Shown piece after piece: positions 24,013 through 57,000 of a stretch of DNA of 64,000 nucleotides. Origin of the DNA: Candidatus Eiseniibacteriota bacterium (lineage in GTDB: Bacteria; Eisenbacteria; RBG-16-71-46; SZUA-252); the NCBI GenBank assembly GCA_038060295.1, contig JBBTHR010000006.1:8735-72734 (forward strand), given 5' to 3'. Positions within the stretch are counted from its first letter, which is position 1, and every line of letters begins with the position of its first letter. A program made the position numbers and the translations under genes. A model generated the notes under the pieces. That model saw only the letters and a program-made list of their open reading frames with translations. It made no database searches and was not told the DNA's origin.

Positions 24013-24777
<765 letters not shown>

Positions 24778-24836
24778 TCTGTGTTCTCCTTCATCGGGCG
24801 CGGCATCCGCGCTTGGTCAATGGCCGGAGCCGGCCG

Positions 24837-25762: not shown

Positions 25763-25786
25763 GGCCTCACGTGCAGTTAGATGCGT

Positions 25787-25816: not shown

Positions 25817-26033
25817 TTTGAAATTTCGGCAGGTTTCGAGGGGAGGTGAGCGGAAATCGTCAGCGTCCGGTCGTTGTCGTGTAAGTAGTTATAAAATAAT
25901 AAATTATGGACATATCCCCGGCCCACAAGGGGGCCATGAGACGCATGATCCTGGAAGCCACGCCTCCGGGGGGCTACTTTGGTGGTATCTTGGGACGCCG
26001 GTTTTCGGATGGATCCAGTGACAGCCCAGGAGG

Positions 26034-30093: not shown

Positions 30094-30124
30094 GGTGGCC
30101 TCCCCTTGTGCTAGGATCGTTCGG

Positions 30125-31903
30125 ATGAATCCCACCCAGGCGGCGCAAGAGCGCGCCCGAGTCCCGAGAGTGGTCCGTCTGGCCCTCGCCCAGGTGAATC
30201 CTGTCGTCGGCGACCTCCCCGGAAACGCCAAGAAGGTCATCGAGTTCATCGAGCGCGCCCGCTCCCAGGGTGCCGAATTGGTGGCGTTCCCGGAACTGGT
30301 CCTGACGGGGTACCCCCCGGAAGACCTCCTCCTCCGTCCGGAGTTCATCGAGCAGAACCAGGCAGCCCTGGACGAGGTGGTCCGGGCGACCCGCGGGATC
30401 ACCGCCATCGTCGGCTTCGCGCAGCGGGCGGGCGACGTCTACAACGCGGCGGCCATCGCGCACGACGGTCGACTCGCCGCAGTTTATCAGAAGAGCCACC
30501 TGCCGAATTACGGCGTCTTCGACGAGGTCCGCTACTTCCGCCCCGGGCGCGACCCGTTCGTCTGCGTACGCGGACCGCTCCGCTTCGCCGTGAACATCTG
30601 CGAGGACATCTGGACGCCCTCCGGGCCGACGGCGCTGGCGCTCTACGGCGAGGCGGAATTGGTCATCAACCTCTCGGCGTCTCCGTTCCACGCCGGGAAG
30701 TCGATCTCCCGCGACCGCATGCTCGCCACGCGCGCCGCCGACGGCGTGGCGTTCGTGGCGTTCGTGAACAACGTCGGCGGGCAGGACGAACTCGTCTTCG
30801 ACGGGAACAGCCGCCTCTTCGGACCCCGCGGCGAGGACCTGGCGCGCGCCGAGGCCTTCGAGGAGGACCTGGTTCTCGTCGACCTCGACCTCGACGCCGT
30901 CTTCCGCGCGCGACTCAAAGATCCGCGGAGCCGCGAGGCCGCGCAGACCGACAACGGCGAGGCGGCCCTCCGCGCGGTCACGCTCTCCGACGTCGCCGCG
31001 CCTGCTCCCAAGCCCCTGCTCCCTCCGCGCAAGACACGCACGCCGGAAGGGGCGGAGGAGATCTACCGCGCCCTCGTGGTCGGAACGCACGACTACATCG
31101 TGAAGAACGGCTTCCAGCGCGTGGTGCTCGGGCTCTCGGGCGGCGTCGATTCCGCGCTCACCGCCGCGATCGCAGCCGACGCCCTGGGGGCTGAAAACGT
31201 CACCGTCGTCTTCCTGCCGTCTCCCTACACCTCGACGGAGAGCGCCGAGGACGCCGAGGCGCTGGCGCGAAATCTGGAACTAGACTACCGCACGCTTCCG
31301 ATCGGCGACGAGATGGAGTCGTACCGGAAGACGCTGGCCGCCGTCTTCGCCGGGCGCCCCGAGGACACGACCGAGGAGAATCTCCAGTCGCGCATCCGCG
31401 GCAATCTCCTCATGGCGCTCTCGAACAAGTTCGGCTGGATGGTCCTCACCACCGGAAACAAGAGTGAGTACTCCTGCGGCTACGCGACGCTCTACGGCGA
31501 CATGGCGGGAGGCTTCGCGGTGCTGAAGGACGTCTTCAAGACGCTCGTCTACGAGCTGGCGCACTATCGGAACGCACGCGCCGGGAAACCGTGGATTCCC
31601 GAGCGGACGATCACCCGGCCGCCGACCGCGGAGCTGAAGCCGGGACAGCTCGACACCGACTCGCTTCCGCCCTACGACATCCTCGATCCGGTCCTTCGCG
31701 CCTACGTGGAGGAGGATTGGGAGGTGGAGCGAATCATGGCGCTCGGCCATGATCGCGCGCTGGTGCGGCGCGTGATCCGGATGGTCGACAAGGCCGAGTA
31801 CAAGCGCCGCCAGGCGCCGCCGGGAATCCGCATCACGCCACGCGCGCTGGGAAAGGACCGGCGCCTCCCGATCACGAACCGCCACCAGCCCTGGCGCGAC
31901 TGA
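30125..31903 (+). CDS. nadE: Glutamine-dependent NAD+ synthetase
   Basis: N-terminal CN-hydrolase domain (LALAQVNPVVGD...FPEL) and a C-terminal synthetase with SGGVDS. The track ORF begins at 30092, but the ATG at 30125 is more likely. Confidence 0.95.
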   Translation: MNPTQAAQERARVPRVVRLALAQVNPVVGDLPGNAKKVIEFIERARSQGAELVAFPELVLTGYPPEDLLLRPEFIEQNQAALDEVVRATRGITAIVGFAQRAGDVYNAAAIAHDGRLAAVYQKSHLPNYGVFDEVRYFRPGRDPFVCVRGPLRFAVNICEDIWTPSGPTALALYGEAELVINLSASPFHAGKSISRDRMLATRAADGVAFVAFVNNVGGQDELVFDGNSRLFGPRGEDLARAEAFEEDLVLVDLDLDAVFRARLKDPRSREAAQTDNGEAALRAVTLSDVAAPAPKPLLPPRKTRTPEGAEEIYRALVVGTHDYIVKNGFQRVVLGLSGGVDSALTAAIAADALGAENVTVVFLPSPYTSTESAEDAEALARNLELDYRTLPIGDEMESYRKTLAAVFAGRPEDTTEENLQSRIRGNLLMALSNKFGWMVLTTGNKSEYSCGYATLYGDMAGGFAVLKDVFKTLVYELAHYRNARAGKPWIPERTITRPPTAELKPGQLDTDSLPPYDILDPVLRAYVEEDWEVERIMALGHDRALVRRVIRMVDKAEYKRRQAPPGIRITPRALGKDRRLPITNRHQPWRD

Positions 31904-31908
31904 GGCTC

Positions 31909-31932
31909 GCCACCCGCGGCCGCGCGGGCGGC
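31909..31932. terminator. GC-rich hairpin between convergent genes
   Basis: GCCaCCCGCG-gccg-CGCGGGcGGC between the nadE stop (31903) and the stop of the minus-strand gene (31947). No U-tract. Confidence 0.35.
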
Positions 31933-31946
31933 TTCGCCGGGCGACG

Positions 31947-34451
31947 TCACTTGAGCACGACGAACGGAATCACCTCGCCAACGTAGCGCCCCTCCGCGCG
32001 CAGGCGCGCCCAGTAGCGGCCCGAGGGAACGCGGCGGCCCGATCGGTCGCGTCCATCCCACTCGAGGCGGAGTTCGGCGACGCCGGCAGTGGCGCCGACG
32101 CCGGCGGAGGGAGCCTGGAGCGTCCGCACCATCCGTCCCTGCACATCGAGGATGTCGATCCGCTCGTTCGCGCGAAGGAGGGGCGCGCTTTCCGCCCCCC
32201 CGCGCGTCGCGGCGCGCGCCCGGACGATCGCCGCTCCGCTGATCGGATTCGGGAAGACGTCGAGCCGCACGCGGCCGAGGGCCGCCGGCGCCGCACGCGG
32301 CTCCCGCTCCACGGCCGTCACCGTCATCGCACCCGGGCGAAGCACCAGCATCCGAGAGCTGTCCGAGACGAAGAGGTCCGGAAGCGGGCCGGCGGTCGGC
32401 TCGAACACCAGCGCCGTCGCACCGCCGGCGGGATTTTGAAAGTGCGCCTTCTCGAGCGCCGTGCCCCCGGGCCAGGCCGCGCCGCGCGCGAGGAGAACCG
32501 GCGCGGTGTAAGGCCCCGCAGCGGCCGCGGTCACGAGATCGAACGCCGGGCGCCCGGGAGACTGGAAGAGCGCAACCCCACCGCCCGCCTGCGCGACGCC
32601 GAGAATTCCGGTCCAGGCGCTCGCCACACCGCACGGCGCCGCCGAGGTCTGTTGCGCCGCCACCAACTCCGGCGCCCCCGCCGCGGGAACGCGCGCGATC
32701 TGAAGCCCGCCGGCCGCCGCCGCGATCGCCACGTAGGCGCTGTCGCGCGAATGCGGAATCCAGGCGAGATCACGCGCGTAGGGCGCGCCCCACGCCGTCG
32801 AGAGCGCGGTCTCGGGCCTGGGCGTGAACGCAACCGTCGCGGGCGTTCCCCCATCGAGCGAGACGTCGGCAACGGCGAGTCCCGCGGAACCGTCGGCGAC
32901 GGCAAGGACCACCACGGCGCCGCCGCCGCGCACTTCCACGTCGAGCGCGTTACCGGGCGTGCTCCACGTACCCGCCATGACCGGAAGACCGGAGAGTGAG
33001 TCGACCGCGGCGGTGACGTCGATCGCCACCACGCCCGCGCCCGTGCCCGCCACCGTGGCCAGCGGGTCGAACGTCGCGGTGACGGGCGTCGAGCCGGTAT
33101 CCGCATCGGCGACGAACGCCACCACACGCCCCGAGGCGGCCCGCGTCCACGCGACGTCGGTCGCGAAGCCGGCAAGTGGGATCGTGCGGAGGATGCGGTC
33201 GTCCACGCCGTTCTGGTCGGAGTCGAAGAAATCCTCCCAGGAGCCGAAGACCGGATCCTCGATCACGCGGAGATCGAGGAGCATGAGGCCGGCGCGGCCG
33301 GCGGCCAGAAGGCCGAGGTCGAGCGTCTCGCCGCTGGCCGCGACGAATCCCGGAACCACCGCGAGCGCGGCCGCGAAGGAAGGAATTCGAATCGTGCCGA
33401 GAAGGCGGTCGTCGCCTCCGTCGCCGTCCGCGTCGGTCAGGCCGATCGAGTCGGTCGACGTCGTGCGGCAAACCTCGATGCCGCCCAATCCTTCCGGCAC
33501 GAGCCAGGCGCCGCGCGCGGGAAGTAGCGCGGCTCCGTCGCGTCCGGTGGCGCCCTGGTCGAGCGGCACGAGGCCGACGGGACGGAGCGCGGTCGGGAGC
33601 GAATCGGAAATCGCCGTCTCGACGATGGCGAAGGCGGTCGCGGTGGAGATTCCCAGCGTGCTCGTCAGGCTCACCTGGAACGAATTAGAACTTCCCGCCC
33701 ACGCGTTTCCGGCGAGCGTGCCGTTCACGTCGAGCGGGACCGTGCCGCCGCCCGGAACGAGGAGTGTCGCCGGCGCGGAGCCTCCCGGGAAGAGCGTTCC
33801 GACATTGTTCGGATCGGGATTCGTCTTCCCCGCCGTCACGACGACGGTCTCGGAGCTGCCGGAGCCGCTTCGAACCGTGAAGGCGGCGACTCCCGAGGAT
33901 CCCGCCGTTCCGGACCAGGTGGGGCTGGCGGGCCAGATCTCGGGCCTCCCATCGGTGGCCGCGATGATCGAGGCGGTCGATTTGGCAGCGAGGCTTCCGC
34001 CATTGGCGTAGACGACGGAAACCGAGACGCTGCCGAGGCCGAGCGACGCCGCGGGCACGCCGACCGAGAGCGGGATGCGCGCGATGACGCCGGCCTGGAG
34101 GACGAGCGTCCCCGAGGCCGGCGTCACGGTCGCGAGGAACCCGCCAGAACTGACGGCACTCCACTCCACGGAGGCGGCGGCCCCCTCCGCGCGGAGAACA
34201 AATTCCAGCGTCGCCGCGCTTCCCGGGGCGATCGTCGCGCTGGGCAGCCATGCCGAGACCGGTCTCGGCGGGATCCAGTCGGCGGCAAGCGCGACCGGCG
34301 GCGCGAGGGACCCGAGCGAGAGTGCCAACGCGGCCCACACCGCGGCCCACGCCGTGGCCGCCGGGAGCGCCAAGAGCGCGCGGACCGCCCAAAGCCCTGA
34401 AAAGCAGCGGGGGCCGGCGGTACGCGCCGGCCCCCCGAAACGATGAAGCAT
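31947..34451 (-). CDS. Large secreted protein with LVIVD-like beta-propeller repeats and a FlgD-Ig/T9SS-like C-terminal domain
   Basis: The likely start is the ATG at 34451 (MLHRFGG... followed by a hydrophobic signal). Recurrent motifs such as VVAFVADADTG, GVVAIDVT and LAVADVSL. C-terminus DVFPNPISG...IDILDVQGRMVRTL...WDGRDRSGRRVPSGRYWARL. Confidence 0.72.
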   Translation of the reverse strand: MLHRFGGPARTAGPRCFSGLWAVRALLALPAATAWAAVWAALALSLGSLAPPVALAADWIPPRPVSAWLPSATIAPGSAATLEFVLRAEGAAASVEWSAVSSGGFLATVTPASGTLVLQAGVIARIPLSVGVPAASLGLGSVSVSVVYANGGSLAAKSTASIIAATDGRPEIWPASPTWSGTAGSSGVAAFTVRSGSGSSETVVVTAGKTNPDPNNVGTLFPGGSAPATLLVPGGGTVPLDVNGTLAGNAWAGSSNSFQVSLTSTLGISTATAFAIVETAISDSLPTALRPVGLVPLDQGATGRDGAALLPARGAWLVPEGLGGIEVCRTTSTDSIGLTDADGDGGDDRLLGTIRIPSFAAALAVVPGFVAASGETLDLGLLAAGRAGLMLLDLRVIEDPVFGSWEDFFDSDQNGVDDRILRTIPLAGFATDVAWTRAASGRVVAFVADADTGSTPVTATFDPLATVAGTGAGVVAIDVTAAVDSLSGLPVMAGTWSTPGNALDVEVRGGGAVVVLAVADGSAGLAVADVSLDGGTPATVAFTPRPETALSTAWGAPYARDLAWIPHSRDSAYVAIAAAAGGLQIARVPAAGAPELVAAQQTSAAPCGVASAWTGILGVAQAGGGVALFQSPGRPAFDLVTAAAAGPYTAPVLLARGAAWPGGTALEKAHFQNPAGGATALVFEPTAGPLPDLFVSDSSRMLVLRPGAMTVTAVEREPRAAPAALGRVRLDVFPNPISGAAIVRARAATRGGAESAPLLRANERIDILDVQGRMVRTLQAPSAGVGATAGVAELRLEWDGRDRSGRRVPSGRYWARLRAEGRYVGEVIPFVVLK

Positions 34452-34458
34452 CACGAGG

Positions 34459-37179
34459 TCATTTGAGGATCGTGACGTTCGCCGTGGACTCCCACGATCC
34501 CGCCTTGATCCTCGCGTAGTAACGGCCCGAGGAGACTCCGACTCCACGATCGCTCTTGCCGTCCCAGATCGCCGTGTGCGGACCGGCGGCCTGGAAGCCG
34601 TTCACGAGCGTGCGAATCATGCGGCCGCTCACGTCGTAGATGCGCATCGAGACCTGCGCGCCCGATCCGGCGCTCCGCGGAATCGCGTACATGAACTTCG
34701 CCGTCGGATTCGCCGGGTTCGGCCCCGAGTTCGCGAAGTAGAACCGATTCGGATCGAGGTCACGGCCCAACCGGCCGGCCAGAGCCACCGTCGGCGTCAC
34801 GGTCGCGGTCCAGACGTAGGTCTGCCCCGTACGCAGTTGCGGAGGAGCCGTCGGTGCGAACGCCGAGGAAGTGATGTCGGAGATGAGAATCTTGTACGTC
34901 CGCGGCGCCTTGCTGTTCGAGTTCGCCGACGGCGGCGGCACCACATACGTGACACGCGGGTTCAGGCCCGAGAAGTCGTCGTTCGCGGCCACCAGATCGC
35001 CGTTGTTGTCGAACAGGAACATGACCAGGTCCATGTTGTTGTTGCCGTCCTGCCCTGTCGCCGCGGCGCTGGCGTCGATCATGTCGCCCGGCTTCGCCTG
35101 GACCGAGAAGTAGTCCTGGTCGCCGGCCGGAGAGTAGGTCCCCGGACGCGACGCGACGGGCGTGGCCATCGGCTTGGCCTCGTTGAGGCGGCCGTTCGGC
35201 TCGTCGGCGTCTTCGTTGAATCCGACGATCGTCACGTTGGACGTGAGACTCCGGTTTCCGTTCTTGTCGATCGCCTGCGTGGCCCAGATCGTCGGAACGG
35301 TGCTCGACGGAAGCGGCTCATAGTGGAAGGTCGCCGCCCCGGCCCCAGCGGTGTCCTTCACCGCGTAGGAGAAGTTGGAGACGATGCCGCGCGAGACCAG
35401 CTCCGTGCGATCGAGCGAATTCGCCGTCAAGGCGAACCCGTCGGCGCGAGTGTTGGTCGGCGCGACCCGGTAGGAGAACTCCATCTGCGTGGCGCGCCTG
35501 TTTCCGCCGAAGGAGGCGGGATTCACGATCGGCACTTCGCTCTCCGGCACCTGGCAGGTCATGTCGATCGCGTAGTTGCGATCGATGGCGAGCGTCACGG
35601 CACCGGCGAGGCTGATGCTGTAGCTATTGCCGAAGAGCCCCTTCTCGAGCTGGGTGAAGTCCATGCGGATGAACGGGAAATTGTTCGGGAATCCCGGCGT
35701 CGACTGCGTGGGGAACTGGAGCACCCAGAAGAAGGTCTTCCCCGCGTCGCTCACCGCCAGATTCAGCGGAACCGTGTTGATCCCGTTCGGATTGCCGTTG
35801 AACGGCGTCTGGACGAAGAGCGGGCTCGCGATGTCGGGACCGCCGGTCGCCGGATTCATCGGGCAGAGCCGCGCGCTCAGGAAGGGCGCCGGAATGCCGT
35901 TGAACGTGAACGAGGGGAACTGGATGTTCGAGATCGTGTAGGGCGGATCGAACGGCGGATCGAAACGAACCGCCAGGTAGCCCGTGTTCCGGAAGGTCAC
36001 GAAGTTCTCGAACGAGCCGTGCTGCGCCATGAGGACGCGGCCCGGATAGGTGTTCGTCTGGAACGCGATGCCGCCGCTGTTGGCGCCGGCCGAGACCGCG
36101 ACCGCCGTGAAGGCGCCCGGAGGATCGGTGAAACCGTTCGACCCCTCCGCCGCGCCGTTCCAGTACTCCGGCTCGTAGCCGATGTCGAGGCCGTTGTAGA
36201 CGCCGCCGACGTTCGCGTCGGCCGCCGTCGTGTTGACGCCGTCGAGCGGAACAATGCGGACGGCGTAGTTCCCGGGCGGGAGGCCGCGGAGCGAGTAGTC
36301 GCCCTGTCCGTTCCGGAGCGTGTACTCGCCCGAAATGTTGCTGATGGAGTTCGCCGCGGTCGGGGCCGCGAGGTTGATTGCCTCGACGTGCGCGCCGAAG
36401 ATGGCCGAGCCGTTGAAGCCGTTCAGCACCGTGCCGCTGATCACGCCGGTCGTGGCGCGGAAATCGACACCGCCGACCGAGAGACCGCGCGCGACGGACT
36501 CGGCGTAGACGTCCGAGAGTCCGGCCCGGTCATCGAGTTCGAGCGACCGCTGTGACGTGTTGCTGACGATGAACGGAATCATCGTCGTACCCGCTACCGA
36601 CGTGTGATCGAGACCGAAGTAGTGCCCGTACTCGTGCGTGACGACGGCCTGGAGGTCGACGCTCGACTGCCCCGCCGGCGCCGGCGTCAGCGCCGGGGAC
36701 GACGTGGAGCAGAAGAAGTCGCGGTCGTTGAACACCATGTCGGCGTCCAGCGTCTGCCCGTCGACCAGATTGACGATGGAACGAACGAACGCGATGACGC
36801 CGCCGCCCGGGGCGAAGCTGACGCCCGGACCGTCGAAGTACATGCTGTTCTGTCCGTCGAACTCGAGATCGGGGTTCGTCTCGGGCGCCCCCCACTGATG
36901 GACGTCCGCGGTGAAATAACAGGTATTGATGTCGACCCACGACTGGGCGGAGGCCTGAACGACCGCCAGCGCCGTCGCCGAGGGGATGTCGAGGTTGGTG
37001 GGATTGACCGCGCTCTTGAGCGGAAGATCGGTGTCGAGCCAGTGGGCCTGGACGACCGGGCTTGCCGCGTCGACCTGGCGTCCCAGTCGGATGAAGGCCG
37101 CGGCCGGATCGGCGCTCGCCACGGCGAACGCGCCGACGAGGAGCGCGGCGACGATGAAGCGGAATCGATTCGTCTTCAT
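34459..37179 (-). CDS. Secreted metzincin-type zinc metalloprotease with carboxypeptidase-regulatory-like, PPC and FlgD-Ig/T9SS-like domains
   Basis: Signal peptide. HEYGHYFGLDH (HExxHxxGxxH). GEYTLRNGQGDYSLRGLPPGNYAVRIVP. PPC-like GDQDYFSVQAKPGDMID...FLFDNNGDLVAANDD. C-terminus PNPANPTAKFMY...MRIYDVSGRMIRTL...WDGKSDRGVGVSSGRYYARI. Confidence 0.85.
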   Translation of the reverse strand: MKTNRFRFIVAALLVGAFAVASADPAAAFIRLGRQVDAASPVVQAHWLDTDLPLKSAVNPTNLDIPSATALAVVQASAQSWVDINTCYFTADVHQWGAPETNPDLEFDGQNSMYFDGPGVSFAPGGGVIAFVRSIVNLVDGQTLDADMVFNDRDFFCSTSSPALTPAPAGQSSVDLQAVVTHEYGHYFGLDHTSVAGTTMIPFIVSNTSQRSLELDDRAGLSDVYAESVARGLSVGGVDFRATTGVISGTVLNGFNGSAIFGAHVEAINLAAPTAANSISNISGEYTLRNGQGDYSLRGLPPGNYAVRIVPLDGVNTTAADANVGGVYNGLDIGYEPEYWNGAAEGSNGFTDPPGAFTAVAVSAGANSGGIAFQTNTYPGRVLMAQHGSFENFVTFRNTGYLAVRFDPPFDPPYTISNIQFPSFTFNGIPAPFLSARLCPMNPATGGPDIASPLFVQTPFNGNPNGINTVPLNLAVSDAGKTFFWVLQFPTQSTPGFPNNFPFIRMDFTQLEKGLFGNSYSISLAGAVTLAIDRNYAIDMTCQVPESEVPIVNPASFGGNRRATQMEFSYRVAPTNTRADGFALTANSLDRTELVSRGIVSNFSYAVKDTAGAGAATFHYEPLPSSTVPTIWATQAIDKNGNRSLTSNVTIVGFNEDADEPNGRLNEAKPMATPVASRPGTYSPAGDQDYFSVQAKPGDMIDASAAATGQDGNNNMDLVMFLFDNNGDLVAANDDFSGLNPRVTYVVPPPSANSNSKAPRTYKILISDITSSAFAPTAPPQLRTGQTYVWTATVTPTVALAGRLGRDLDPNRFYFANSGPNPANPTAKFMYAIPRSAGSGAQVSMRIYDVSGRMIRTLVNGFQAAGPHTAIWDGKSDRGVGVSSGRYYARIKAGSWESTANVTILK

Positions 37180-37194
37180 GGTGCTCGCCCTCCC

Positions 37195-37785
37195 TTACTT
37201 GTCGGTGGGTTCGACCTGCACCTTGCCGGCTTCGTCGAGCTCGGTGCGCAGGCCGTCGAGGAACGCTTGAAGCGGCTGCGCCTTGCCGGCGTCCGCTTCG
37301 CTCGTCTTGCCGCCCGGAGCGACGAGAACCAGCCCGTCGATCTCGCTGCGGACGTGCTTCTGACCGTGCTCATCCGCCGTCACGGAGTACTTGCCCTGCT
37401 GGAGCCCCATGACCCACGGATAGCCGGCTCCGTCTTTCCGCGTCAGGAAAAGGACGACTTCCTCGCCCTTCCGGAAGGTCGGAGTGCCGGGGACGATCGA
37501 CGCGATCTTGTCGATGGTGCCGCCCAGCTGCCGGATGGTGATCACGTCGTCCTTCTTCGGGCCCTTCACGGGCTCGAGGACGCGCAACGTGATGTAGGTG
37601 AAGATTTCCTTGTTGGATTCGTAGCGGGCGGATTCGTCTTCGACGCGGGCGAGCACGATGGCGTCGGACTTCTTGGCGAGATCTCTGAGGGACATCTTTT
37701 CGACCGTGGTGGCTGCCGCGTAGCTCGCGGTGATCATCGCGAGCGCGGCAATTGCCAGCACGACCGTTCGACGGACGCGATTCAT
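37195..37785 (-). CDS. Hypothetical secreted protein
   Basis: 196 aa with signal peptide MNRVRRTVVLAIAALAMITASYAA. It lies 15 nt upstream of the metalloprotease gene. No recognised motif. Confidence 0.65.
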   Translation of the reverse strand: MNRVRRTVVLAIAALAMITASYAAATTVEKMSLRDLAKKSDAIVLARVEDESARYESNKEIFTYITLRVLEPVKGPKKDDVITIRQLGGTIDKIASIVPGTPTFRKGEEVVLFLTRKDGAGYPWVMGLQQGKYSVTADEHGQKHVRSEIDGLVLVAPGGKTSEADAGKAQPLQAFLDGLRTELDEAGKVQVEPTDK

Positions 37786-38013
37786 CGCCAGTTCTCCTGA
37801 GGTGCGTCGTCAGTTCGGCGGACCGAGTTCCTTACGGGGCCGCCCGATGGCTTGCGTGGCGTGAACGGAAAGTGGAAGTCGTCGTGGGCTCGGTTCTCAC
37901 CCCCCTTGGTGGCCGATTGGCCGAGACTTGAGATGAACCGTATCGGAGCAGGTTGCATCTGGGGAACTGCGTGATCCGACCCAGGATCAACGCTGGATTC
38001 GCACAGAAGCGGA

Positions 38014-38042
38014 AGTATATCAAATTATGGCAGTTATGTCAT
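38014..38042 (-). promoter_or_regulatory. Sigma-70-like promoter ATGACA-N17-TATACT
   Basis: Read on the minus strand within a locally AT-rich patch. It would give a leader of about 220 nt before the ATG at 37785. Confidence 0.5.
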
Positions 38043-38136
38043 CCCTAGAGTGCATTTCGGTGGTGCTCCCGGACCGCGTGCGGCGGCGATCGCAAGTCCC
38101 AGGCGAGTCCGATCCAGTCGATGGTGCGGCGGGCGG

Positions 38137-39030
38137 CTAGAGTGGCCATGATGCGACCTCGAGGTGCGTTGTCACCGTGCCTTGGATAGCGAGAACCTCC
38201 ACGGGATTCTGGAGAGCTTCCGTCGTCAGGTAGCCCATGCCCAAGCCGCGCCCCGTTCCCGGCTCGAGTACCGTGCTGGTGATGATCCCGGCGTGGAGGT
38301 TCCCTCCCGCCCTGAGTTCGGTTCCCCGCGGCAGAATTCCCGCCTGGCCGGGGTAGCGGAACCCGATCCGATGACGCCGGACCGCTCCGCGATGCGTGGT
38401 GCGGGCCACGACCTCCTGGCCCACGAAACATCCTTTATCGAGCGAGATCGCCTGCGGGAGCGAAAGCTCCGTGGCGATCCGGTCCTGATCGAAATCTACG
38501 CCGGCGCGCGGGATTCCCGCCGCGATTCTCCACGCCTCTGCCTCCTCGGGCGAGACGGCCGACGTCAGCAGACCCGCCGCGCTCCCCGGCTTCTCCGCTC
38601 CGGGAGGCAGCAGGAGAAACGTGGCCGGATCGGCTTCGATTGCCTCGCCGCCCGGGAGCGCCGCCGCCCGCTCGCGCGCCACCCTGCTCCGGTCCCGGCC
38701 GGCAACGCCGTAGAGGCGCGGCATTCCCTTCGGCCCCGCGAAGACGACGTCCTCCATGACCCGAAGGCGGTCGAGGTGGGGCAGGAGCGCCTCCCGTCCC
38801 CCCGGCTCCACGAAGAGAGTGGCGCCCTCCCCCTCGCGGTCCAGGACCGCCCACGCCAGGGCCAGAGGCCGCCCCTTTTCCGACAGAAAGAGGGTCGGCT
38901 TGGCGGCATCGGGTCGGAGGGTTGCTACATCTTGTGTTCCAACGCCTTGCAGGAATTCACGGGCATCAGGCCCGGTGATCCTCATGACCGCCCAGTCCTG
39001 GAAATCGAGGAGAAACGCGGGTCGTTCCAT
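38137..39030 (-). CDS. ygfZ: YgfZ/GcvT-like folate-binding protein
   Basis: [10 protein letters not shown] and [17 protein letters not shown] signature. The likely start is the ATG at 39030 ([10 protein letters not shown]). The track ORF extends to 39099. Confidence 0.85.
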
Positions 39031-39115: not shown

Positions 39116-39466
39116 ATGGACCCGAATCAGCCGATTTCAATACCCCTCGACCGGCGCGCGAAGGATTCCGAAGCGCAGAACGAGGAACTGGCGAAGCTGG
39201 CGAAGGCGCTGGCGCACCCGGCGCGCGCCGCCATCGTTCGCCTTCTCCTGAGCGGCGGCGAGTGCGTCTGCGGCGGCATCGTCGATCGCATCCCACTGGC
39301 GCAGGCGACCGTGTCGCAGCACCTGAAGGTGTTGAAGGAAGCAGGCTGGATCAAAGGCGAGGTGGACGGTCCGCGCGTCTGCTACTGCGCCCGTCCCGAA
39401 ACATTGACGCGCTTCGTAGAACTGGCGCGCGGGTTGGAACCAACCATGGAAAGGAGTCCGTCATGA
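39116..39466 (+). CDS. arsR: ArsR family metalloregulator
   Basis: The ATG is preceded by [20 protein letters not shown]...ECVCGG...[14 protein letters not shown] shows the winged HTH and the CVC metalloid site. Confidence 0.9.
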
Positions 39467-40254
39467 CCACGAACGACATCCGGGAGACGGTGCGGGAGCG
39501 TTACGGCAAGGTGGCCGAGACGGTGGGAAGCGAACCGCAGGGCTGCTGCGGGACCGACTGCGGTTGCGGCACCACGGTCTCCCTGGAGGAACTCGGCTAC
39601 AGCGCCGAGCAGCGCGCCGTCGTTCCCTCGGGGTCCGATCTCGGGCTCGGCTGCGGCAATCCGCTCGGGCACGCGGCGGTGAAGCCGGGCGAGACGGTGC
39701 TCGACCTCGGATCGGGCGCGGGAATCGACGCCTTCCTCGCCTCGCGCGAGGTCGGTCCGACGGGGCGCGTTCTGGGAGTCGACATGACCGCGTCGATGCT
39801 CTCCCGCGCGCGCGCCAACGCCGTGAAGGGTGCCTTCACGAACGTGGAGTTCCGTCTCGGCGAGATCGAGAACCTCCCTGTCGCCGACGGCACGGTGGAC
39901 GTCATCATCTCGAATTGCGTCGTCAATCTCTCGCCGGACAAGTCGCGCGTCTTCCGCGAGGCGCTCCGGACGCTTCGGCCCGGCGGCCGTGCGGTCCTGA
40001 GCGATCTGGTCCTGGTGGCTCCCCTACCGGAGGCGGTTCGCACGTCGGTGGAGGCGTACGTCGGCTGCGTGGCGGGCGCTTCCATGAGGGACGACTACCT
40101 GGCGCTGATGCGCGAGGCGGGGTTCGAGCGCGTGGAGGTGCTGGAGGAGAAGGAGTACGGCGCGGCGGCGTTCGGCCCCGACGAAGCCGCGGCGGCTGCG
40201 ACGCTCCGCGCGGTGCGCTCGGTGAAGGTGCGGGCGTTCAAGCCGGCCGCCTGA
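39463..40254 (+). CDS. arsM: Arsenite S-adenosylmethionine methyltransferase
   Basis: ATGA overlap with arsR. N-terminal Cys cluster [15 protein letters not shown], the SAM motif [11 protein letters not shown] and the conserved SNCVVNL. Confidence 0.9.
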
Positions 40255-41855: not shown

Positions 41856-41918
41856 AATCGGCGCATGGCCGGAAAGCGACTGGTGATCCTGTGGGCGGCT
41901 GTCGCTGGCGGCCGAACG

Positions 41919-41961
41919 GGGCCACCGAGCGGATGGCCGCCGAGCAGTGGCCGCCGAGCGG
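41919..41961. repeat. Three tandem copies of a 14-15 bp unit (TGGCCGCCGAGCRG)
   Basis: GGGCCACCGAGCGGA / TGGCCGCCGAGCAG / TGGCCGCCGAGCGG. They are intergenic, about 100 nt upstream of the ATG at 42059. Confidence 0.7.
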
Positions 41962-42058: not shown

Positions 42059-42454
42059 ATGAAGCGTCTGCTCACGGTCTCTCTGGCCCTGGCCCTGGTG
42101 GCTCTCTTCGCCTTCTCTGGCGCGTTCGCGGCCGAGGGGAAGAAGGAAGCGAAGAGCCAGAGCTGGACCGGCGAAGTCGTCGATCTCGGCTGCTACATGG
42201 GTCACGCGGCGATGGGTGAGAAGCACATGGAGTGCGGTCTCAAGTGCGTCGCGGGCGGCATGCCGATGGGCTTGGTGGTCAAGGGCAACAAGGTGTTCGT
42301 CCTGACGATGAACCACGACAACGGCGACGCCTTCAACGCCTGCAAGGGCTGGGTCTCGCAGCAGGTGAAGATCACCGGGACCATGGCGACCAGGGGCGGG
42401 CTGCAGTCGATCGATGTCGCGGCTGCCGAGCTGGCGGCCGCTCCCGCGAAGTAA
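42059..42454 (+). CDS. Exported Cys/His-motif protein, paralogue 1 (uncharacterised family)
   Basis: The ATG is preceded by AAAGGAGG. Signal peptide MKRLLTVSLALALVALFAFSGAFA. Motif GEVVDLGCYMGHAAMGEKHMECGLKCVAGGMPMG. It is the 3' in-frame part of track ORF 41381..42454. Confidence 0.8.
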   Translation: MKRLLTVSLALALVALFAFSGAFAAEGKKEAKSQSWTGEVVDLGCYMGHAAMGEKHMECGLKCVAGGMPMGLVVKGNKVFVLTMNHDNGDAFNACKGWVSQQVKITGTMATRGGLQSIDVAAAELAAAPAK

Positions 42455-42503
42455 CTCATAAGCGCGCGTGAGGTCCCGAACGGCCTCACGCGCGTCTTCC
42501 TTC

Positions 42504-43274
42504 ATGATCCGCCGCGCGCTTCTCCTCCTCTTCGCCGCCTCCCTGGTCGTGGTGCTCCTGGCCGCGGCCGATTCGCTGCGCCCGCGGCTCACGCCGGCCG
42601 AGCGCGGGCGGCGTCTGGCCGAAGCGAACGGATGCTTCTCCTGCCACGGCCCGGAAGGGACGAAGGGAGTACCCAACCCCGGCCGCGCCGACCTCACGGT
42701 GCCGGCATTCCCCGGCACGCTCATGATGTACGCCAAGGACGCGGATCAGGTGCGCGAGTGGATCCGCGACGGCGCGACGAAAACGCGCCGGGCAAGCAAG
42801 ACATGGCGCGCCGAGCGGGAGAAGGGCGCGCTCCGGATGCCTGCCTATGGGAAGCGGCTGACCGGCCGGGAGATGGATGACCTCGTCGCCTTCGTTCTCG
42901 CCGCCGCGGGAGAGCCGGCGCCTGAAGACTCTCTCCCCGCGGCCGGGCTGGAGCGGGCCTCCGCGCTCGGCTGCTTCGGCTGCCACGGCATCGGCGGCCG
43001 CTTCGCGCGGCCGAACCCAGGTTCGTTCAAGGGATTCGTTCCTCCCTGGGACGGGGCTGACTTCCCCGAGCTGGTCGCCGACCGCCGGGAATTCGGGGAG
43101 TGGGTGGAAGAGGGGGTGAGCCGGCGATTCTCCGCGAATCCCGCGGCGCGCTTTTTCCTGGAGCGCGCGCCGCTCCGGATGCCCGTCTATCGCAAGCAGT
43201 TACGGCCCGGAGACGTGGACGCGCTGTGGGCCTACGTCACATGGCTCCGAACGCCCATGCTTCCTACGCCATAG
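42504..43274 (+). CDS. Diheme c-type cytochrome with an N-terminal membrane anchor
   Basis: Two CxxCH motifs (CFSCH, CFGCH), each followed by RMPAY or RMPVY. The likely start is the ATG at 42504 (MIRRALLLLFAASLVVVLLAAA). Confidence 0.85.
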   Translation: MIRRALLLLFAASLVVVLLAAADSLRPRLTPAERGRRLAEANGCFSCHGPEGTKGVPNPGRADLTVPAFPGTLMMYAKDADQVREWIRDGATKTRRASKTWRAEREKGALRMPAYGKRLTGREMDDLVAFVLAAAGEPAPEDSLPAAGLERASALGCFGCHGIGGRFARPNPGSFKGFVPPWDGADFPELVADRREFGEWVEEGVSRRFSANPAARFFLERAPLRMPVYRKQLRPGDVDALWAYVTWLRTPMLPTP

Positions 43275-43317
43275 GGACCATGGAGCATTCGCGCGGGTGC
43301 GGGGTAACATTCATCGT

Positions 43318-43785
43318 ATGAAACGACTTCTCCTTGTTGCGCTGGCGGTCGCGCTGATGGCTCCGGCGGCCGATTTCCCCGCCACGGCGGGGGCGCAGTC
43401 AGGCGGCACCGCCGCCCCGAAGGGGCCCAAGAAACCGATCAAGGTAGTCGGCGAACTCCTCGACATGGGCTGCTTCATCTCGCGCGGCCTGACCGGGGAA
43501 CTGCACCGGGAGTGCGCCACCAAGTGCATCAACAACGGCGTGCCGATGGGCATCATGACCGCGGACAGCACGGTTTACGTGCTGACGCAGAATCACGATC
43601 GCGCCATGGAACCGAAGGGCTTCGTCGGCTCGCCCGACCCCTACGTTCTGCTCAAGACCCTGGCGGCCAAGCAGGTCGAGGTTCTGGGGCTGAACTGGGA
43701 ACGCCACGGCGTGAAGTTTCTCGAGGTGAAGTACGCCAAGCCGGCGCCCGCCGCGGCGTCGACGCCCCCCAAACCGGGACCGTAG
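43318..43785 (+). CDS. Exported Cys/His-motif protein, paralogue 2
   Basis: Signal peptide MKRLLLVALAVALMAPAA... Motif GELLDMGCFISRGLTGELHRECATKCINNGVPMG ... VYVLTQNH. Confidence 0.8.
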   Translation: MKRLLLVALAVALMAPAADFPATAGAQSGGTAAPKGPKKPIKVVGELLDMGCFISRGLTGELHRECATKCINNGVPMGIMTADSTVYVLTQNHDRAMEPKGFVGSPDPYVLLKTLAAKQVEVLGLNWERHGVKFLEVKYAKPAPAAASTPPKPGP

Positions 43786-43804
43786 TCTACCGAGGAAGAA
43801 CAGC

Positions 43805-44347
43805 ATGCATCGCACCGACGAGCCCGTCCGCACGTCCCCCGCTCCCCGCTGGATCCGCTTCGCGTCGATGACCGCCGTCGTGGTCGTCGCGTTGGCCGCG
43901 GGGGCCGCCATAGGAAGGAGCACGTCGCCTCCGCCTCCGCCCAAGGGAACCGCGACGGCGAAAGCGGCGCCCGAGAAGTTGAACGCGGCCGGCCTCAAGG
44001 TCTCCAATCGCCGCCTGGTCACCGTCAGGGGCGAGGTGGTCGACTACTACTGCTTCATCGAGAAGGGACTCCGCGGGCCGGGACATCTCGAATGCGCGGT
44101 GAAATGCGTGGCGGGAGACGTCTGCATGGGGATGTACACGCAGGAGGGCGAGCTCTACATGATCTCGGTGAACCACCTGCGCGCGATGGACCCGCTGGCG
44201 TTCAAGGGAATCCCCGATCCGTTCAACCGCTGCCGCGGGCTGCTCAGCCAGACCGTCGACCTCACCGGCTACGCGATGGAGCGGTTCGGCCAGAAGATCC
44301 TCGAGATCATGGACGTCAAGCCCGTGGGGCCGACGACGCAAGGATAA
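43805..44347 (+). CDS. Membrane-anchored Cys/His-motif protein, paralogue 3
   Basis: N-terminal hydrophobic anchor MTAVVVVALAAGAAIG. Motif GEVVDYYCFIEKGLRGPGHLECAVKCVAGDVCMG ... LYMISVNH. Confidence 0.78.
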   Translation: MHRTDEPVRTSPAPRWIRFASMTAVVVVALAAGAAIGRSTSPPPPPKGTATAKAAPEKLNAAGLKVSNRRLVTVRGEVVDYYCFIEKGLRGPGHLECAVKCVAGDVCMGMYTQEGELYMISVNHLRAMDPLAFKGIPDPFNRCRGLLSQTVDLTGYAMERFGQKILEIMDVKPVGPTTQG

Positions 44348-53177: not shown

Positions 53178-54011
53178 CTATTTCTTGTCTGTGTTGATTG
53201 GAACGAAAAGTATGACCCAGTCAGCCACAGGACCGATTGGGGCCTGAGCGGGCGAGAAGTTCCACAAATCAAGAGCAGCGCGTGCGGCTTTGGCGGCTGC
53301 TGAAAGTGGCGAGCCAGGGGCGCGACCCAATACTCGCGCCTCCAAGAGCCGGCCCTCCCTGGATATCACCGCAAGGAATCGAACGCTGTCTTCGCTCCCC
53401 GAAACGTTGCACGAGCGGCAAACCCCCGGGGGGCCCCCGAGCGCCCGCGCGCGTACCGACAAGTGTTGAGTGGTGACATATTCCGGCCCATCGATCGGGA
53501 TGAGTGCGAACCCGCTGTATCGGAACCGAATTCCCTTTCGAATTGTCTCTTCCCGAACGGGTTCGAATCTGCCGTTCGCCGTCTCTGCACTCGGCGGCCC
53601 CACACTCATCACGTAGTCGCCCTCATCGATGTGGTATCCATCCGACGAGACGTGTCGTACGTTCAGCCGGACCTGGCCTAAGGATGGCGCGCCCGGAACG
53701 AAACGAAGTTCCCATTCACGATCCGCAGGGCCACGCCATGCGGCAGAGGGGTGAATCAGCCTTACCAAGTCTCCCGCCACTAGTTTCGCACCTTCCGGAA
53801 GTTGGATGCTGACCGTGGCCGTCGAGTTCCTCTCGTAGGCTCCGTCGACACTCACGAGCAGGGAAACAGGTTCACCTGTGATCCACGACCTCTGAACATA
53901 GGAAACCCACAGCGGTGAGTCGTGCGGAACAACGGACCCGCTGCTCGCATGCGCAGTGCCGTGAGCGATGAGCATTACCGCCAGAATTCTGATGAAGCAG
54001 ATCCTCAACAT
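53178..54011 (-). CDS. Secreted protein with a TonB-C-terminal-like domain
   Basis: Signal peptide MLRICFIRILAVMLIAHGTAHA. The last roughly 80 aa (VRFLAVISREGRLLEARVLG...AAKAARAALDLWNFSPAQ..PIGPVADWVILFVPI) resemble the TonB_C fold pattern. It lies 11 nt downstream of the 1158-aa gene. Confidence 0.6.
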   Translation of the reverse strand: MLRICFIRILAVMLIAHGTAHASSGSVVPHDSPLWVSYVQRSWITGEPVSLLVSVDGAYERNSTATVSIQLPEGAKLVAGDLVRLIHPSAAWRGPADREWELRFVPGAPSLGQVRLNVRHVSSDGYHIDEGDYVMSVGPPSAETANGRFEPVREETIRKGIRFRYSGFALIPIDGPEYVTTQHLSVRARALGGPPGVCRSCNVSGSEDSVRFLAVISREGRLLEARVLGRAPGSPLSAAAKAARAALDLWNFSPAQAPIGPVADWVILFVPINTDKK

Positions 54012-54022: not shown

Positions 54023-57000
54023 CTACTGGAGCTTGACCAGCCTCACTGTCCGCTTCATTCCGGGACCTTCCAATCGACAGAAGTAAACTCCTGCCGACGC
54101 CTTTCTGCCATGACGGTCATTGCCATCCCAGCGAACCTCGTGCAATCCGGGACCCACTAGCCCTCGCGAAAGCGTCGTGACGAGCCGTCCCTGGACATCG
54201 TACAGTTTGACTTGGATGGGGGCCACTTTCGCGACCTCGGGGATGGTGATTGCAATGACTGAATTTCGGCGAAACGGATTTGGTTTCGCGTGCAGATTCC
54301 ACGTCGGTGGTGGGGCCTGATCATAATCACTTATTCCTGTAACCCCGCCTTGTATTCCATGCTCCCAGAATAAATCCCAAGTGCGCTTGTATCGGTCAGT
54401 CCACATGTTTGGTGTGTATGTGGCCGCCTGATAAACCGAACGAAAGTCGAATACAGTCCTAATCACCGTTGCCGCCGGGACATGCGACGGATTGCTGTCC
54501 CGAAGAACGCTCCAGAGGGTCTCGATTCCGTCTGCGAGCGAGTCACCGGACGCATCCCCATTCTGATTGTCCGCTTCCGAGTCCATGACATCATAGAGCA
54601 AACTGGCTATTGACACCTCGAATAGGGGACCCGAAGCGTTGAGCGTATCGACTTGGCCATGCGGCGAAAGGGTCACCAGGCCACGCTCGAGGTCCAGGAT
54701 GGCTTCGCCTTGAATGCCCAATCCGTCGACGCCCCTATTTCGTATGGTCTGGCTCGGTGGTCCCCATTGGCGGAACAGGCCGAAGAAATGCCCCCAGCCC
54801 TCGCCCCAGGCAAGCTCGAGCGATGGGCTGGGGCCGTTTATCGTATGATCGCCTCCTGGAGACATGTCGAAGCCCATTCTGGAAGACACGTGATGGCCAT
54901 ACTCATGCAGCACCCACGAGTCGTCGGCCTCGTCCGGAGTGTAGCCCCACGATGGAGTGCTCGAGCCATTGATGTGAATGGTACTTGTGTTGACCGCGTA
55001 GCTCGTGACTCTTGAATACCCAGGCGACCACTGTACGGTGAGGGGCCCGAGCCCGATACTTGTGGGGCATCGGTCACGAACCCAGGCCCACCCACGCTCG
55101 GCGATCGTCTTCATCATGTGCAGAGCCCACCGATCGCCGTAGCCGGTAGGCTTGAGAAGCCCAACGTCAAGTGTGTCTCCAGCGAAGTCTTCCGTCACGC
55201 CCGACTCGAATGCCCACGGCGTGCCGTCGTCCTTCACCATGGTAACAAGCCAGGAGCCAGGATAGGAAAGGTTCCAGCAGTTCTCGTTACTTCTGTAGTT
55301 CACACGCACTTTGAGATCTAGAAACCCATTGTCATCGTCGGTGTCTACGTTGGCAATTGGGCCGATGATGAAACGCCCAGTATCCCAACAGCATACCGCT
55401 GCCGCGCCAAGCGTATCGATTCCATTGGGATCCCCGGTGTCGATGACCATCACATCGTTGCACGGGGTCGTCGTCGTCCCCAAGAGAGAATCGTCATAGA
55501 AGAAGGTCCCCGTGACGTAAATCAATCTTGAGGCCCATACCGTCTGCACCGGCCCGTGCGAGTTGTTACCCTCGGTGCTGCCCTCATCGACCGCGTTCGT
55601 CGCGTCCGCCAGTAGGTACATGTTCCACGTCTCGGCTTTGGTTCCCGTCGCGTAGAAGTGGAGAACGGTCGATGCGCCGGCTCCAAGCGTCCCCACGGTC
55701 ACGGATTGTTCTCCTCGGGTGCCGTATGCTGGGGGGCTTCCACGATTCTTGTACCAGTCGAGGGCGCAACTCCCACCCGTTGCAGCGGTTCCCTGGTTAC
55801 GCACGGTCACGGCGATGTCCACCGTCTGCCCCATCGTAAACGTGTACGCAACGGCACTCCCCGTTTCCAACAACGCGGGCGCCATCGCGGGAGCCGCAGG
55901 CGGCGTTTGCGCGGTCACCGTCACGCTCTGCACGATGAGGTCGGGCGCGGGGGGATTCGACCACGTGAACGCGGCTTGATACGTGTTGTCCCCCTCGTTC
56001 GACTCCGTGATGGAGCCGGTGGGATCGATCACCATCTTGAGCGTGTGCGTCCCGGCTGTGTTGACCACGTAGCCCCAATCGGTGCGCGTGTACGTGGTGT
56101 TCGCCGAAAGCGAGAAAACGTAGTCCGATCCGATCCACCCGTTGTCGAGGTAGTAGTCGACGTAGAATCCGCCGGCGGACCCCGTGTCGGCATTGCGGAT
56201 GGCCCAGTCGATGTTGGTGAACTGACCCGTGAGTAGGTTCGCGCCGGTCGTCGTGGTGCCAAAGCTCATCGAAGGGACGATCGGCCCGCTCCAGCCCGTG
56301 GGAGTGGTCGCGAGGAGATTCGGCGAGTTGGCGGTGACTTGAATGTCGTCCAAGAGAATTCCGCCCGCGGCGGTAATCGAGTTGTCGCTCGCGAACACGA
56401 AACGAAGATAGAGGTTGTCATACGCGTGGCCGGAATTGTCGAAGATCCATTGCCTCTGAACCCAGCCCCCCGACGAGCCGGTCATTTCGATGAGCTGCGT
56501 CAGGGGATTGGGCGCCCCGCCCGCCTGGAACGAAAGGAAGTCGTAGCCCGACTCCATGTTGCAATTGACCCAGAAGCTGACCGTGAAGGACGAGTAGGAG
56601 CCCATGTAGATCGACGAGACGTTCTCCAGATCGGCCGTCTGGTTGTTGTCGTAGGCGGCGCATCCCACATCTCCGTGCCAGGCTGCCGATACGATCCACG
56701 ACCCGCCGTGCGCGGCCCCACATATTACGTCGCCCCAATAGTCGAGACCGTTGTACGAGTTGTAGTCTGCCGCGCTCCAGGAGGAACCCGGCACGAACTC
56801 GGTTTCGAACCCTTCGGAGAAAACGACCGGTCCCGCAACCGCCTCCCCCGCGGCAGGGGCGGCGCTCGCCCTCCTTCCCCCGCTCGATTGGCCGGATCCC
56901 GGTGGCGCCTTCGGGGGCGCGGAACCTGTCGGCTGTCTGATGCTCTCGGGCGGCCGGTACTCCCAGCAGGAAATACCGCGCTCTCCCAATTCATAGAAAT

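Follow-up and report, generated by a model that had tools for sequence, protein, structure and literature searches.

How copper is handled in the periplasm has been mapped well for a few Proteobacteria, through CusF, CueO, CopC/D, CopI and CopG. CusF is a Cu(I) chaperone of the oligonucleotide/oligosaccharide-binding (OB) fold, encoded in cusCFBA, that receives copper from CopA and feeds CusB (PMC7558416). Copper also attacks c-type cytochrome maturation in the periplasm, and CopI matters most at low oxygen (PMC4600104). Here we describe a cluster of four co-directional genes at positions 42059-44347 of a 64,000-nt stretch of Candidatus Eiseniibacteriota DNA (contig JBBTHR010000006.1; the whole stretch is referred to as the window). 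The cluster encodes three paralogous proteins, P1, P2 and P3, with a dihaem cytochrome c between P1 and P2. We conclude that P1, P2 and P3 are, as judged from their sequences, members of a large, hitherto undescribed family of Sec-exported proteins. On comparative evidence, we consider it an evenly balanced proposition that these are periplasmic thiolate binders of a soft metal, probably Cu(I), that work with a dedicated redox partner.

The closest working analogy would be with the CusF-type periplasmic metallochaperones. Like CusF and SilF, the family consists of small Sec-exported proteins with a predicted five-stranded OB-type barrel; in several genomes its genes likewise occur between CusA and CopA genes, and apo-SilF (8bbz), a silver chaperone homologous to CusF, is among the structural neighbours of P1, where it scores no better than generic OB folds. 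The family would stand apart in its ligand chemistry, its helical insert and its dedicated redox partner. The CusF ligands are His, two Met and Trp inside the barrel, whereas those proposed for the new family are three Cys and one His (Cys3His) on an insert that CusF lacks, and CusF has no dedicated cytochrome partner. Moreover, a scan of 63 members at E ≤ 1 listed 25 families, and CusF_Ec was absent from these. Membership in CusF/SilF was rejected, since both the profile and the ligand comparisons fail.

Sco1, SenC and PrrC share with the family a CxxxC motif accompanied by a His, a periplasmic location and the possibility of acting both in copper binding and in thiol redox chemistry, and SenC is tethered in the manner of P3 (PMC7558416). 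However, Sco proteins have a thioredoxin fold rather than an OB-like one, and the new family adds a third invariant Cys and is not recurrently linked to oxidase genes. Compared with the distal His of Sco, the family His is on the same helix as the Cys residues and adjacent to them in H-x2-C-x3-C. We rejected membership in Sco because the predicted fold is OB-like. CopI, CopJ and the cupredoxins are periplasmic proteins of copper clusters, acting alongside CopA and obscure in mechanism, and Cupredoxin_1 genes share clusters with the family; however, CopI is folded like plastocyanin and carries a His-Cys-His-Met site, CopJ has a CxxC motif (PMC4600104), and neither is related to the family. BOF/YgiW and DUF5818 proteins are likewise small, exported OB-fold proteins, but their matches to the family are all non-significant and the Cys/His helical insert is not known in either; since YgiW and DUF5818 are functionally uncharacterised, the resemblance gives no functional information. 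YHS/TRASH domains space their Cys residues as C-x19-22-C-x3-C. The spacing here is C-x13-C-x3-C and no family member gave a YHS/TRASH match, and this assignment was also rejected.

A family of predicted exported proteins with a Cys3His motif

The first-pass annotation of the window, made from the sequence alone, had described P1, P2 and P3 as paralogues and had recognised no named domain in them. Pairwise BLASTP confirmed the paralogy (P1/P2, 4e-20; P2/P3, 4e-29; P1/P3, 3e-19), and all three proteins carry G-E-x2-D-x2-C-x10-H-x-E-C-x2-K-C plus a later N-H. Likewise, no named family emerged: P1, P2 and P3 had no match in Pfam or NCBIfam even at E ≤ 1, and a sequence-profile search of the PDB returned noise alone (the signal-peptide region of NosZ, E 1.2). 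Relatives were nevertheless plentiful. A word-indexed search returned 47 from a single sequence and at least 346 from a profile, and an exhaustive profile search of 1.84 billion representatives returned 2,199 clusters (50% identity) at E ≤ 1e-3, with 657 at E ≤ 1e-10. No precomputed Pfam domain was attached to any of the relatives, and the source names that we encountered all read "hypothetical protein".

A typical member has 120-140 aa and consists of a signal peptide and a single domain of ~100 residues; tandem fusions of two family domains also exist (e.g. proteins P0126 and P0254). The family-wide motif is C-x10-12-H-x2-C-x3-C, and this core was present in 267 of 278 proteins retrieved. 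In an alignment of 63 diverse members (A4), the three Cys residues are invariant, and G-E-x2-D, the His and G-x-P-x-G are each at least 90% conserved. The longer motif reported earlier therefore stands in part: its Cys residues are invariant and its His nearly so, as had been expected of homologues, but the Glu of H-x-E-C, the Lys of C-x2-K-C and the Met of P-M-G are, in A4, confined to the lineage of the window, and the Met, which had been listed as an invariant residue, is not one across the family. Twin-arginine-like N-termini were seen in 17 of 404 proteins. Because the N-termini are mostly Sec-like, we infer that family members are exported by Sec and would acquire any cofactor in the periplasm. 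We rejected a periplasmic Fe-S protein on the same Sec-type signal peptides. Sub-threshold matches to DUF5818 cover the C-terminal β-hairpin of 13 of the 63 aligned members (best E 2.8e-4), which may reflect a distant link to another uncharacterised family of small proteins; a literature search on DUF5818, DUF2231 and Eisenbacteria cytochromes returned nothing relevant.

AlphaFold2 models of P1 and P2 have mean predicted local distance difference test (pLDDT) scores of 91 and 86, respectively, with values above 93 for the P2 domain. The two models agree in the order of their elements: strand 1, two short helices, strands 2-3, a helix, and strands 4-5. Foldseek searches of the PDB with these models returned OB folds alone (RPA and SSB as well as LysRS and AspRS anticodon-binding domains), all at E ≥ 1e-3; YgiW (1nnx) was a weak match, and for P1 apo-SilF was found at rank 18 (E 0.017). 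We conclude that the predicted fold of the family is an OB-like β-barrel with no close solved relative, in agreement with the OB fold that had been guessed at the outset. Because the matches are generic OB folds at E ≥ 1e-3, no function can be transferred from them. When the motif is mapped onto the predicted secondary structure, it falls in the two-helix insert between strands 1 and 2. The first Cys is at the start of helix 1, and the His and the two remaining Cys, at positions i, i+3 and i+7, are on one face of helix 2. In the models, this placement would suit a Cys3His metal site.

Neighbouring cytochrome and copper genes

We collected the genomic context of the family from two scans. Among GTDB species representatives, 214 relatives were found and 80 loci were kept; the second scan, of metagenomes and with Bacteroidota-like members as seed, added 80 further loci. 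There were 164 related loci overall (numbered L below), which dereplicate at 70% identity to 72 lineages. Neighbouring genes were clustered by BLASTP and labelled by Pfam and NCBIfam. The GTDB loci are mostly from Eisenbacteria, with others from Zixibacteria, Ignavibacteriales, Cytophagales/Chitinophagaceae, Fervidibacter, Acidobacteriota/Holophagae and Armatimonadota. Two loci are labelled Candidatus Saccharimonadaceae and Hyphomicrobiales (L009, DATJGS010000027.1, and L010, JBLMXB010000012.1, respectively); these contigs are probably mis-binned, since they agree with the Eisenbacteria loci in GC content (0.70-0.71), in the order of their genes and in protein identities.

The dominant neighbour is a homologue of the dihaem cytochrome, which directly adjoins the family gene in ~50 of 78 GTDB loci, nearly always downstream and on the same strand; the order is reversed in L078 and L142. 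A P1-type gene lies directly beside a cytochrome homologue in 33 of the 72 lineages, in loci whose GC content ranges from 0.26 to 0.72, and the low-GC metagenome loci (GC 0.26-0.37) carry this neighbour as well. Thus, the linkage to cytochromes whose recurrence the first-pass annotation had proposed to examine is found across base compositions and in both gene orders, and neither a named-family match, nor a loss of the Cys and His residues, nor an absence of cytochrome linkage was observed. Where there is no cytochrome, the next gene sometimes encodes a DUF2231 membrane protein (L139, L149, L153, L154, L164 and L166); other such loci have a Haem_bd monohaem protein encoded divergently upstream.

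The cytochrome in the window fits its earlier description as a dihaem class I cytochrome c. It has an N-terminal hydrophobic helix and two haem-binding motifs, CFSCH at residue 44 (42633-42647) and CFGCH at residue 157 (42972-42986), each followed by a Met-containing motif (RMPAY at 42834-42848 and RMPVY at 43176-43190). It matches Pfam Cytochrom_C over two stretches (8e-15; 56 bits against a cut-off of 21), and Cytochrome_CBB3 was also matched. Its two CxxCH class I domains with Met sixth ligands recall cytochrome c4 and CcoP, and its N-terminal anchor is like that of CcoP. However, it scores 40 bits against a cut-off of 180 for the CcoP equivalog model TIGR00782, and its best PDB match is 1.4e-4 over 59 residues. 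We rejected its assignment as CcoP, subunit III of a cbb3 oxidase, given the sub-threshold score and the lack of adjacent ccoNOQ or other oxidase genes. We conclude that this cytochrome is a subfamily of its own, defined by its linkage to the new family.

The arrangement P1-cytochrome-P2-P3 is limited to one subclade (the window, L003-L008, L010, L084 and L087). P2 carries the insertion that marks P2-type proteins, RAMEP..F.G.PDPY. P3 has an additional Cys in a D-V-C-M-G stretch, directly after helix 2, which takes the form A-G-D-[VI]-C-M-G in the P3 subfamily, and a further Cys, in F-N-x-C-[KR]-G, is common to P1 and P3. All ten distinct P3-type genes lie beside another family gene, and the P2 and P3 genes overlap by 4 nt in L001, L002, L003 and L087. 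Together with the tandem domain fusions, these adjacencies and overlaps suggest that P2 and P3 act as a pair. P2-like genes are flanked by a variant radical S-adenosylmethionine (SAM) gene in L001 (7015-8672), L002 (7293-8950) and L085/L086 (7525-9167). This gene matches NF045502 (176 bits against a cut-off of 125), has a CX10CxxC-type motif and is accompanied by a gene for a 137-140-aa protein without family assignment; the lineage is not Eisenbacteria. The same neighbourhoods include TauE and hemerythrin genes and, in L085, a NosZ/NosD cluster. The radical SAM gene and its companion may encode maturation factors or may be mere synteny.

The proposed link to copper comes in part from a subset of loci. 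In L020, genes for an OEP, an adaptor, a CusA-family resistance-nodulation-division (RND) pump, the family protein, the cytochrome, a P-type ATPase and a cupredoxin follow one another on the same strand, either overlapping or no more than 52 nt apart, and L016 has the same arrangement. The ATPase passes the copper-subtype model TIGR01511 (594 against 397) and carries YHS and heavy-metal-binding (HMBD) domains, and the pump passes TIGR00914, the CusA/CzcA family model (1137 against 701). In L142 the order is CopA-cytochrome-family gene, in L148 and L160 the CusA gene is followed by the family gene, and in L164 and L166 the family gene and its DUF2231 neighbour lie beside a convergent CusA gene. 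The family gene is found in a cus-type RND context in L016, L020, L052, L148, L160, L164 and L166; the window has no CusA homologue. Several further loci have a gene for CopA, Cupredoxin_1, a TolC-type protein or a Met/His-rich protein of 405-472 aa nearby. Overall, CopA or CusA is encoded within three genes of the family gene in 10 of the 72 lineages, and the flanking DNA, 1.46 Mb in all, contains 20 such genes, as against ~1 per Mb expected from our own rough estimate for typical genomes, which is not a computed control.

Features of the proteins themselves point the same way. HMBD is fused to the C-terminus of one member (P0134; Pfam E 1.1e-12) and to the N-terminus of another (P0238), and there are Met-rich and His-rich tails in P0222 and P0247, respectively. 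In 26 of 135 P1-type proteins, among them most of the ones encoded in pump clusters, a His/Met-rich linker comes after the signal peptide. When plasmids were searched for family proteins, one match emerged, WP_014438599.1 of Phycisphaera mikurensis plasmid pPSMK1 (NC_017081.1; L168), a family member (hidden Markov model E 1.7e-23) with His-rich ends. DUF2946 and HMBD-like genes flank it on one side, and DUF2231 and Rieske genes on the other. The surrounding island (24120-38284) carries genes for a copper oxidase, a four-helix-bundle copper-binding protein, a CsoR-type metal-sensitive regulator, and TolC and RND adaptor proteins. The island also includes unannotated small proteins with HMBD-like and YHS/TRASH-like Cys motifs (6293-6796 and 10310-10945 of L168).

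A metal, metalloid or sulfur ligand had been proposed for these proteins from the window alone. Within that range, the neighbouring genes, the HMBD fusions, the tails and the plasmid island favour a soft metal of the copper/silver type, and sulfur and arsenic are unlinked. An arsenic function was rejected because ArsR-ArsM genes co-occur only within one Eisenbacteria synteny block, and a sulfur carrier of the SoxYZ/SoxAX type was rejected because no sox or dsr neighbours were found.

We propose the following scheme. In the periplasm, the Cys3His site of exported P1 would bind a soft metal ion, with Cu(I) the most probable one, and the bound metal or the site itself would exchange electrons with a dedicated membrane-anchored partner. 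This partner would be the dihaem cytochrome c in the window; in other genomes its place would be taken by a monohaem protein or by a DUF2231 membrane protein, the latter alone or together with a Rieske protein. The module would serve copper homeostasis, with P1 in the position that CusF occupies in cus operons. P1 and the cytochrome are the conserved core pair. P2 and P3 are another conserved pair, which one Eisenbacteria subclade has gained downstream; they would be a second binder, probably as a heterodimer that P3 tethers to the membrane. Because Cu(I) is stabilised by thiolate sites, we favour, weakly, electron flow from the cytochrome to Cu(II), with the resulting Cu(I) captured for efflux, over oxidation of Cu(I). 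The damage that copper does to cytochrome maturation (PMC4600104) would be a further reason for the family and the cytochrome to be encoded together. More tentatively, the family protein and the cytochrome could form a periplasmic copper oxidoreductase on the respiratory chain, in which the copper at the Cys3His site is reduced or oxidised. We think this extension possible but improbable as a whole; it would make copper detoxification and efflux dependent on the quinone/cytochrome pool instead of on multicopper oxidases that need oxygen, and so able to operate under anoxia, and P1 and P2-P3 would be a soluble-to-tethered hand-over chain.

Alternatives to the proposed role in copper homeostasis

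We infer export, metal binding, the identity of the metal as copper and electron transfer with the cytochrome from comparison of genes and proteins, and several observations weigh against the proposed scheme. The window holds no gene for CopA, CusA, a cupredoxin or a metal regulator, and its P1, P2 and P3 are without His/Met-rich linkers. No metal gene is near the family gene in 62 of the 72 lineages, and many Bacteroidota-type members lie amid unrelated housekeeping genes. The loci are best matches to two narrow seed alignments and hence a non-random sample of the family. The predicted site geometry is derived from secondary-structure positions alone. A Cys3His site could equally bind Zn or Fe, the CusA/CzcA family exports Zn, Co and Cd as well, and periplasmic Cys residues often form disulfides, so that the three Cys could be structural.

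One alternative is that the family assists the assembly of a cuproenzyme, as a Sco- or PCuAC-like chaperone or a thiol oxidoreductase for a haem-copper oxidase, N2O reductase or other cuproenzyme. The dihaem cytochrome would then supply that enzyme with electrons instead of taking part in detoxification. H-x2-C-x3-C does recall the CxxxC and distal His ligand set of Sco (PMC7558416), the membrane anchor of P3 is like that of SenC, the sole and weak relatives of the cytochrome are CcoP subunits of cbb3 oxidase, and in L085 and L086 a P2-like gene is 3 kb from a hemerythrin-cytochrome c-NosZ-NosD cluster. However, no haem-copper oxidase or nos gene is a recurrent neighbour in the 164 loci. The metal genes that do recur are those of efflux and resistance (CopA, CusA, TolC-type, cupredoxin and copper oxidase), the His/Met-rich tails and HMBD fusions typify resistance proteins, and the AlphaFold2 fold is OB-like rather than thioredoxin-like. 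We consider an assembly factor unlikely, and give the same low weight to a generic periplasmic electron carrier, the redox relay of the first-pass annotation, in which the Cys3His residues would hold an Fe or Cu centre or act as a redox thiol, with no role in metal homeostasis, and electrons would shuttle between the cytochrome and an unspecified substrate or an extracellular electron-transfer chain. Three consecutive paralogues would suit such a relay; redox proteins persistently accompany the family (the dihaem cytochrome, DUF2231 with Rieske, and Haem_bd), and multihaem cytochromes and MtrB/PioB are encoded nearby in L001, L056 and L046. Against this, an Fe-S or Fe centre assembled beforehand is unlikely given export by Sec, the neighbours include no recurrent substrate-specific enzyme, genes of sulfur and arsenic oxidation are unlinked, and the HMBD fusions, Met/His tails and efflux-pump operons would be left unexplained.

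The conserved Cys residues could instead be structural, with a disulfide and/or a zinc site stapling the helical insert while the barrel binds a peptide, a sugar or an apocytochrome, for example as a dedicated chaperone of the adjoining cytochrome. Disulfide-bonded Cys are frequent in the periplasm, OB folds usually bind their ligands at the barrel face, and periplasmic OB proteins of the YgiW type exist. A chaperone that protects cytochromes could also end up in copper clusters, given that copper harms cytochrome c assembly (PMC4600104). However, the most conserved residues are the Cys, the His and their flanks rather than any barrel face, a metal site accounts better than a disulfide for an odd number of invariant Cys together with a His on the same helix face, and more than half of the members have no adjoining cytochrome. 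We regard this explanation as rather less probable than the two above. Least probable, to the point of being remote, is that the family proteins are modified by a radical SAM enzyme, with their Cys residues (and the Glu and Asp of G-E-x2-D) cross-linked or modified in some other way before export and the cytochrome part of a quinoprotein-like enzyme; this is modelled on the γ subunit of quinohaemoprotein amine dehydrogenase (QhpC/QhpD). The NF045502 gene and the 137-140-aa gene do accompany P2-like genes in L001, L002, L085 and L086, but both genes are absent from the window, the other ~160 loci have no radical SAM homologue, the gene pair is convergent rather than co-oriented in L001 and L002, and the four loci resemble one or two related lineages. 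We retain copper homeostasis as the preferred reading, at the even weight given above.

Organisation and surroundings of the locus

The features of the cluster are listed in Table 1. Gene coordinates and intergenic gaps (49, 43 and 19 nt, in order) that had been given for the cluster were reproduced by the open reading frame listing and by a second, independent gene caller based on codon position. A strong Shine-Dalgarno sequence, AAGGAGG, lies 7 nt 5′ of P1 and is the best in the cluster. At the other end, a class I methyltransferase gene is convergent with P3 and overlaps its 3′ end by 32 nt. The window is 99.97% identical over 13.6 kb to an ENA metagenome contig (L084), and its close relatives are labelled Candidatus Eisenbacteria.

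Table 1 Features of the P1-cytochrome-P2-P3 cluster and its 5′ flank (positions in the window)
Feature	Position	Strand	Description
NDH-2 (type II NADH dehydrogenase) gene scar	41865..41948	+	Remnant open reading frame begins MAGKRLVIL; blastn against L005 and L004
P1	42059..42454	+	131 aa, Sec-type signal peptide; P1-type member of the predicted OB-fold Cys3His family
P1 motif GEVVDLGC45...H56MEC59GLKC63	42170-42247	+	Extra Cys95 also present
Intercistronic hairpin	42462..42493	+	GC-rich, GCGCGCGTGAGG-loop-CCTCACGCGCGC, between P1 stop and cytochrome start codons
Dihaem class I cytochrome c, membrane-anchored	42504..43274	+	256 aa, N-terminal transmembrane helix
P2	43318..43785	+	155 aa, signal peptide; Cys52, His63, Cys66, Cys70
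P3	43805..44347	+	180 aa, N-terminal hydrophobic anchor, Pro-rich linker; P3-type

The first-pass annotation had taken the four genes for one operon. Their common strand and short gaps agree with this, but a conserved, terminator-like hairpin follows P1. It has a GC-rich stem of 14 bp (ΔG -28.5 kcal/mol; z-score -6.1). We surveyed 49 cases in other genomes in which 25-200 nt separate a family gene from a cytochrome gene, and in 36 of these the equivalent intergenic region folds at z < -2.5. The hairpin recurs across phyla and GC contents (L003-L061 and L127-L157), ~10-20 nt before the cytochrome start codon, and in low-GC genomes it has the appearance of a classical terminator, a stem followed by a U-run. 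When 14 Eisenbacteria sequences were aligned, compensatory changes were seen at 7 of 13 base pairs. A dispersed repetitive extragenic palindromic (REP)-like element was rejected as an explanation, since the hairpin is present in a single copy in the window. Because the hairpin is ~10 nt from the cytochrome start codon in the window, there is no room for a separate promoter between them. These features suggest that the hairpin is a partial terminator or attenuator, or an mRNA-stabilising element, that raises P1 above the cytochrome. Combined with the best Shine-Dalgarno sequence of the cluster, it would place P1 in excess, as would fit a stoichiometric binder with a catalytic membrane partner. 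A scan for sigma-70 promoters found none, and the sole terminator-like match in a terminator scan falls inside the cytochrome gene; both scans are uninformative for this phylum.

Upstream of P1, the window carries the remnant of an NDH-2 gene. In L003-L008, L010 and L087, an NDH-2 gene (identified in L005, at 4587-5930, by Pfam Pyr_redox_2 and NDH2_C) lies between an epimerase gene and P1, on the same strand and with gaps of 9-70 nt. In the window, ~1,270 nt of this gene are deleted, which leaves ~35 nt of its 5′ end and ~40 nt of its 3′ end. E. coli NDH-2 is reportedly a cupric reductase. Further upstream, at 39116-40254, a gene for an ArsR-family regulator with Cys pairs (ECVCGG ... CYC) is translationally coupled, through an overlap of 4 nt, to a SAM methyltransferase gene whose product has a Cys-rich N-terminal stretch; the couple resembles an ArsR-ArsM arsenite methylation pair. 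It is 2 kb upstream of the cluster, is syntenic in relatives, and is separated from the cluster by apt and the epimerase gene.

Elsewhere in the window, three large predicted exported proteins (34459-37179, 8769-10703 and 54023-57499) have an FlgD_ig-like C-terminal domain, which may be a sorting or secretion tag typical of the phylum. The proteins with this tail are an M10 peptidase with CarboxypepD_reg, a 1,158-aa protein with a CARDB domain and a further protein of 644 aa. GC content falls from ~0.69 to 0.59-0.64 between 52000 and 64000; this region includes a gene for a sigma-54 activator with tetratricopeptide repeats (57821-60112) and large open reading frames with no Pfam match (61572-63959 and 53178-54011).

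As far as its sequences allow us to judge, the family is a widespread and uncharacterised one with a coherent, testable copper hypothesis that is of interest to specialists in metal homeostasis. Periplasmic copper handling is largely uncharted in the environmental, uncultured phyla in which it is found (Eisenbacteria, Zixibacteria, Ignavibacteriales, Bacteroidota, Acidobacteriota, Planctomycetota and Armatimonadota). The copper reading is testable in culturable carriers, namely Phycisphaera mikurensis (pPSMK1), Rhodocytophaga aerolata (L077) and Negadavirga shengliensis (L082). If it is true, the OB barrel with a Cys3His helical insert would be a new fold-and-ligand solution for soft metals, and it would be unusual for a metal-binding protein to be obligately paired with a c-type cytochrome, a pairing in which an oxygen-free redox control of copper could be tested. 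It would also give a name and a hypothesis to at least 2,199 clusters of proteins that are now called hypothetical.

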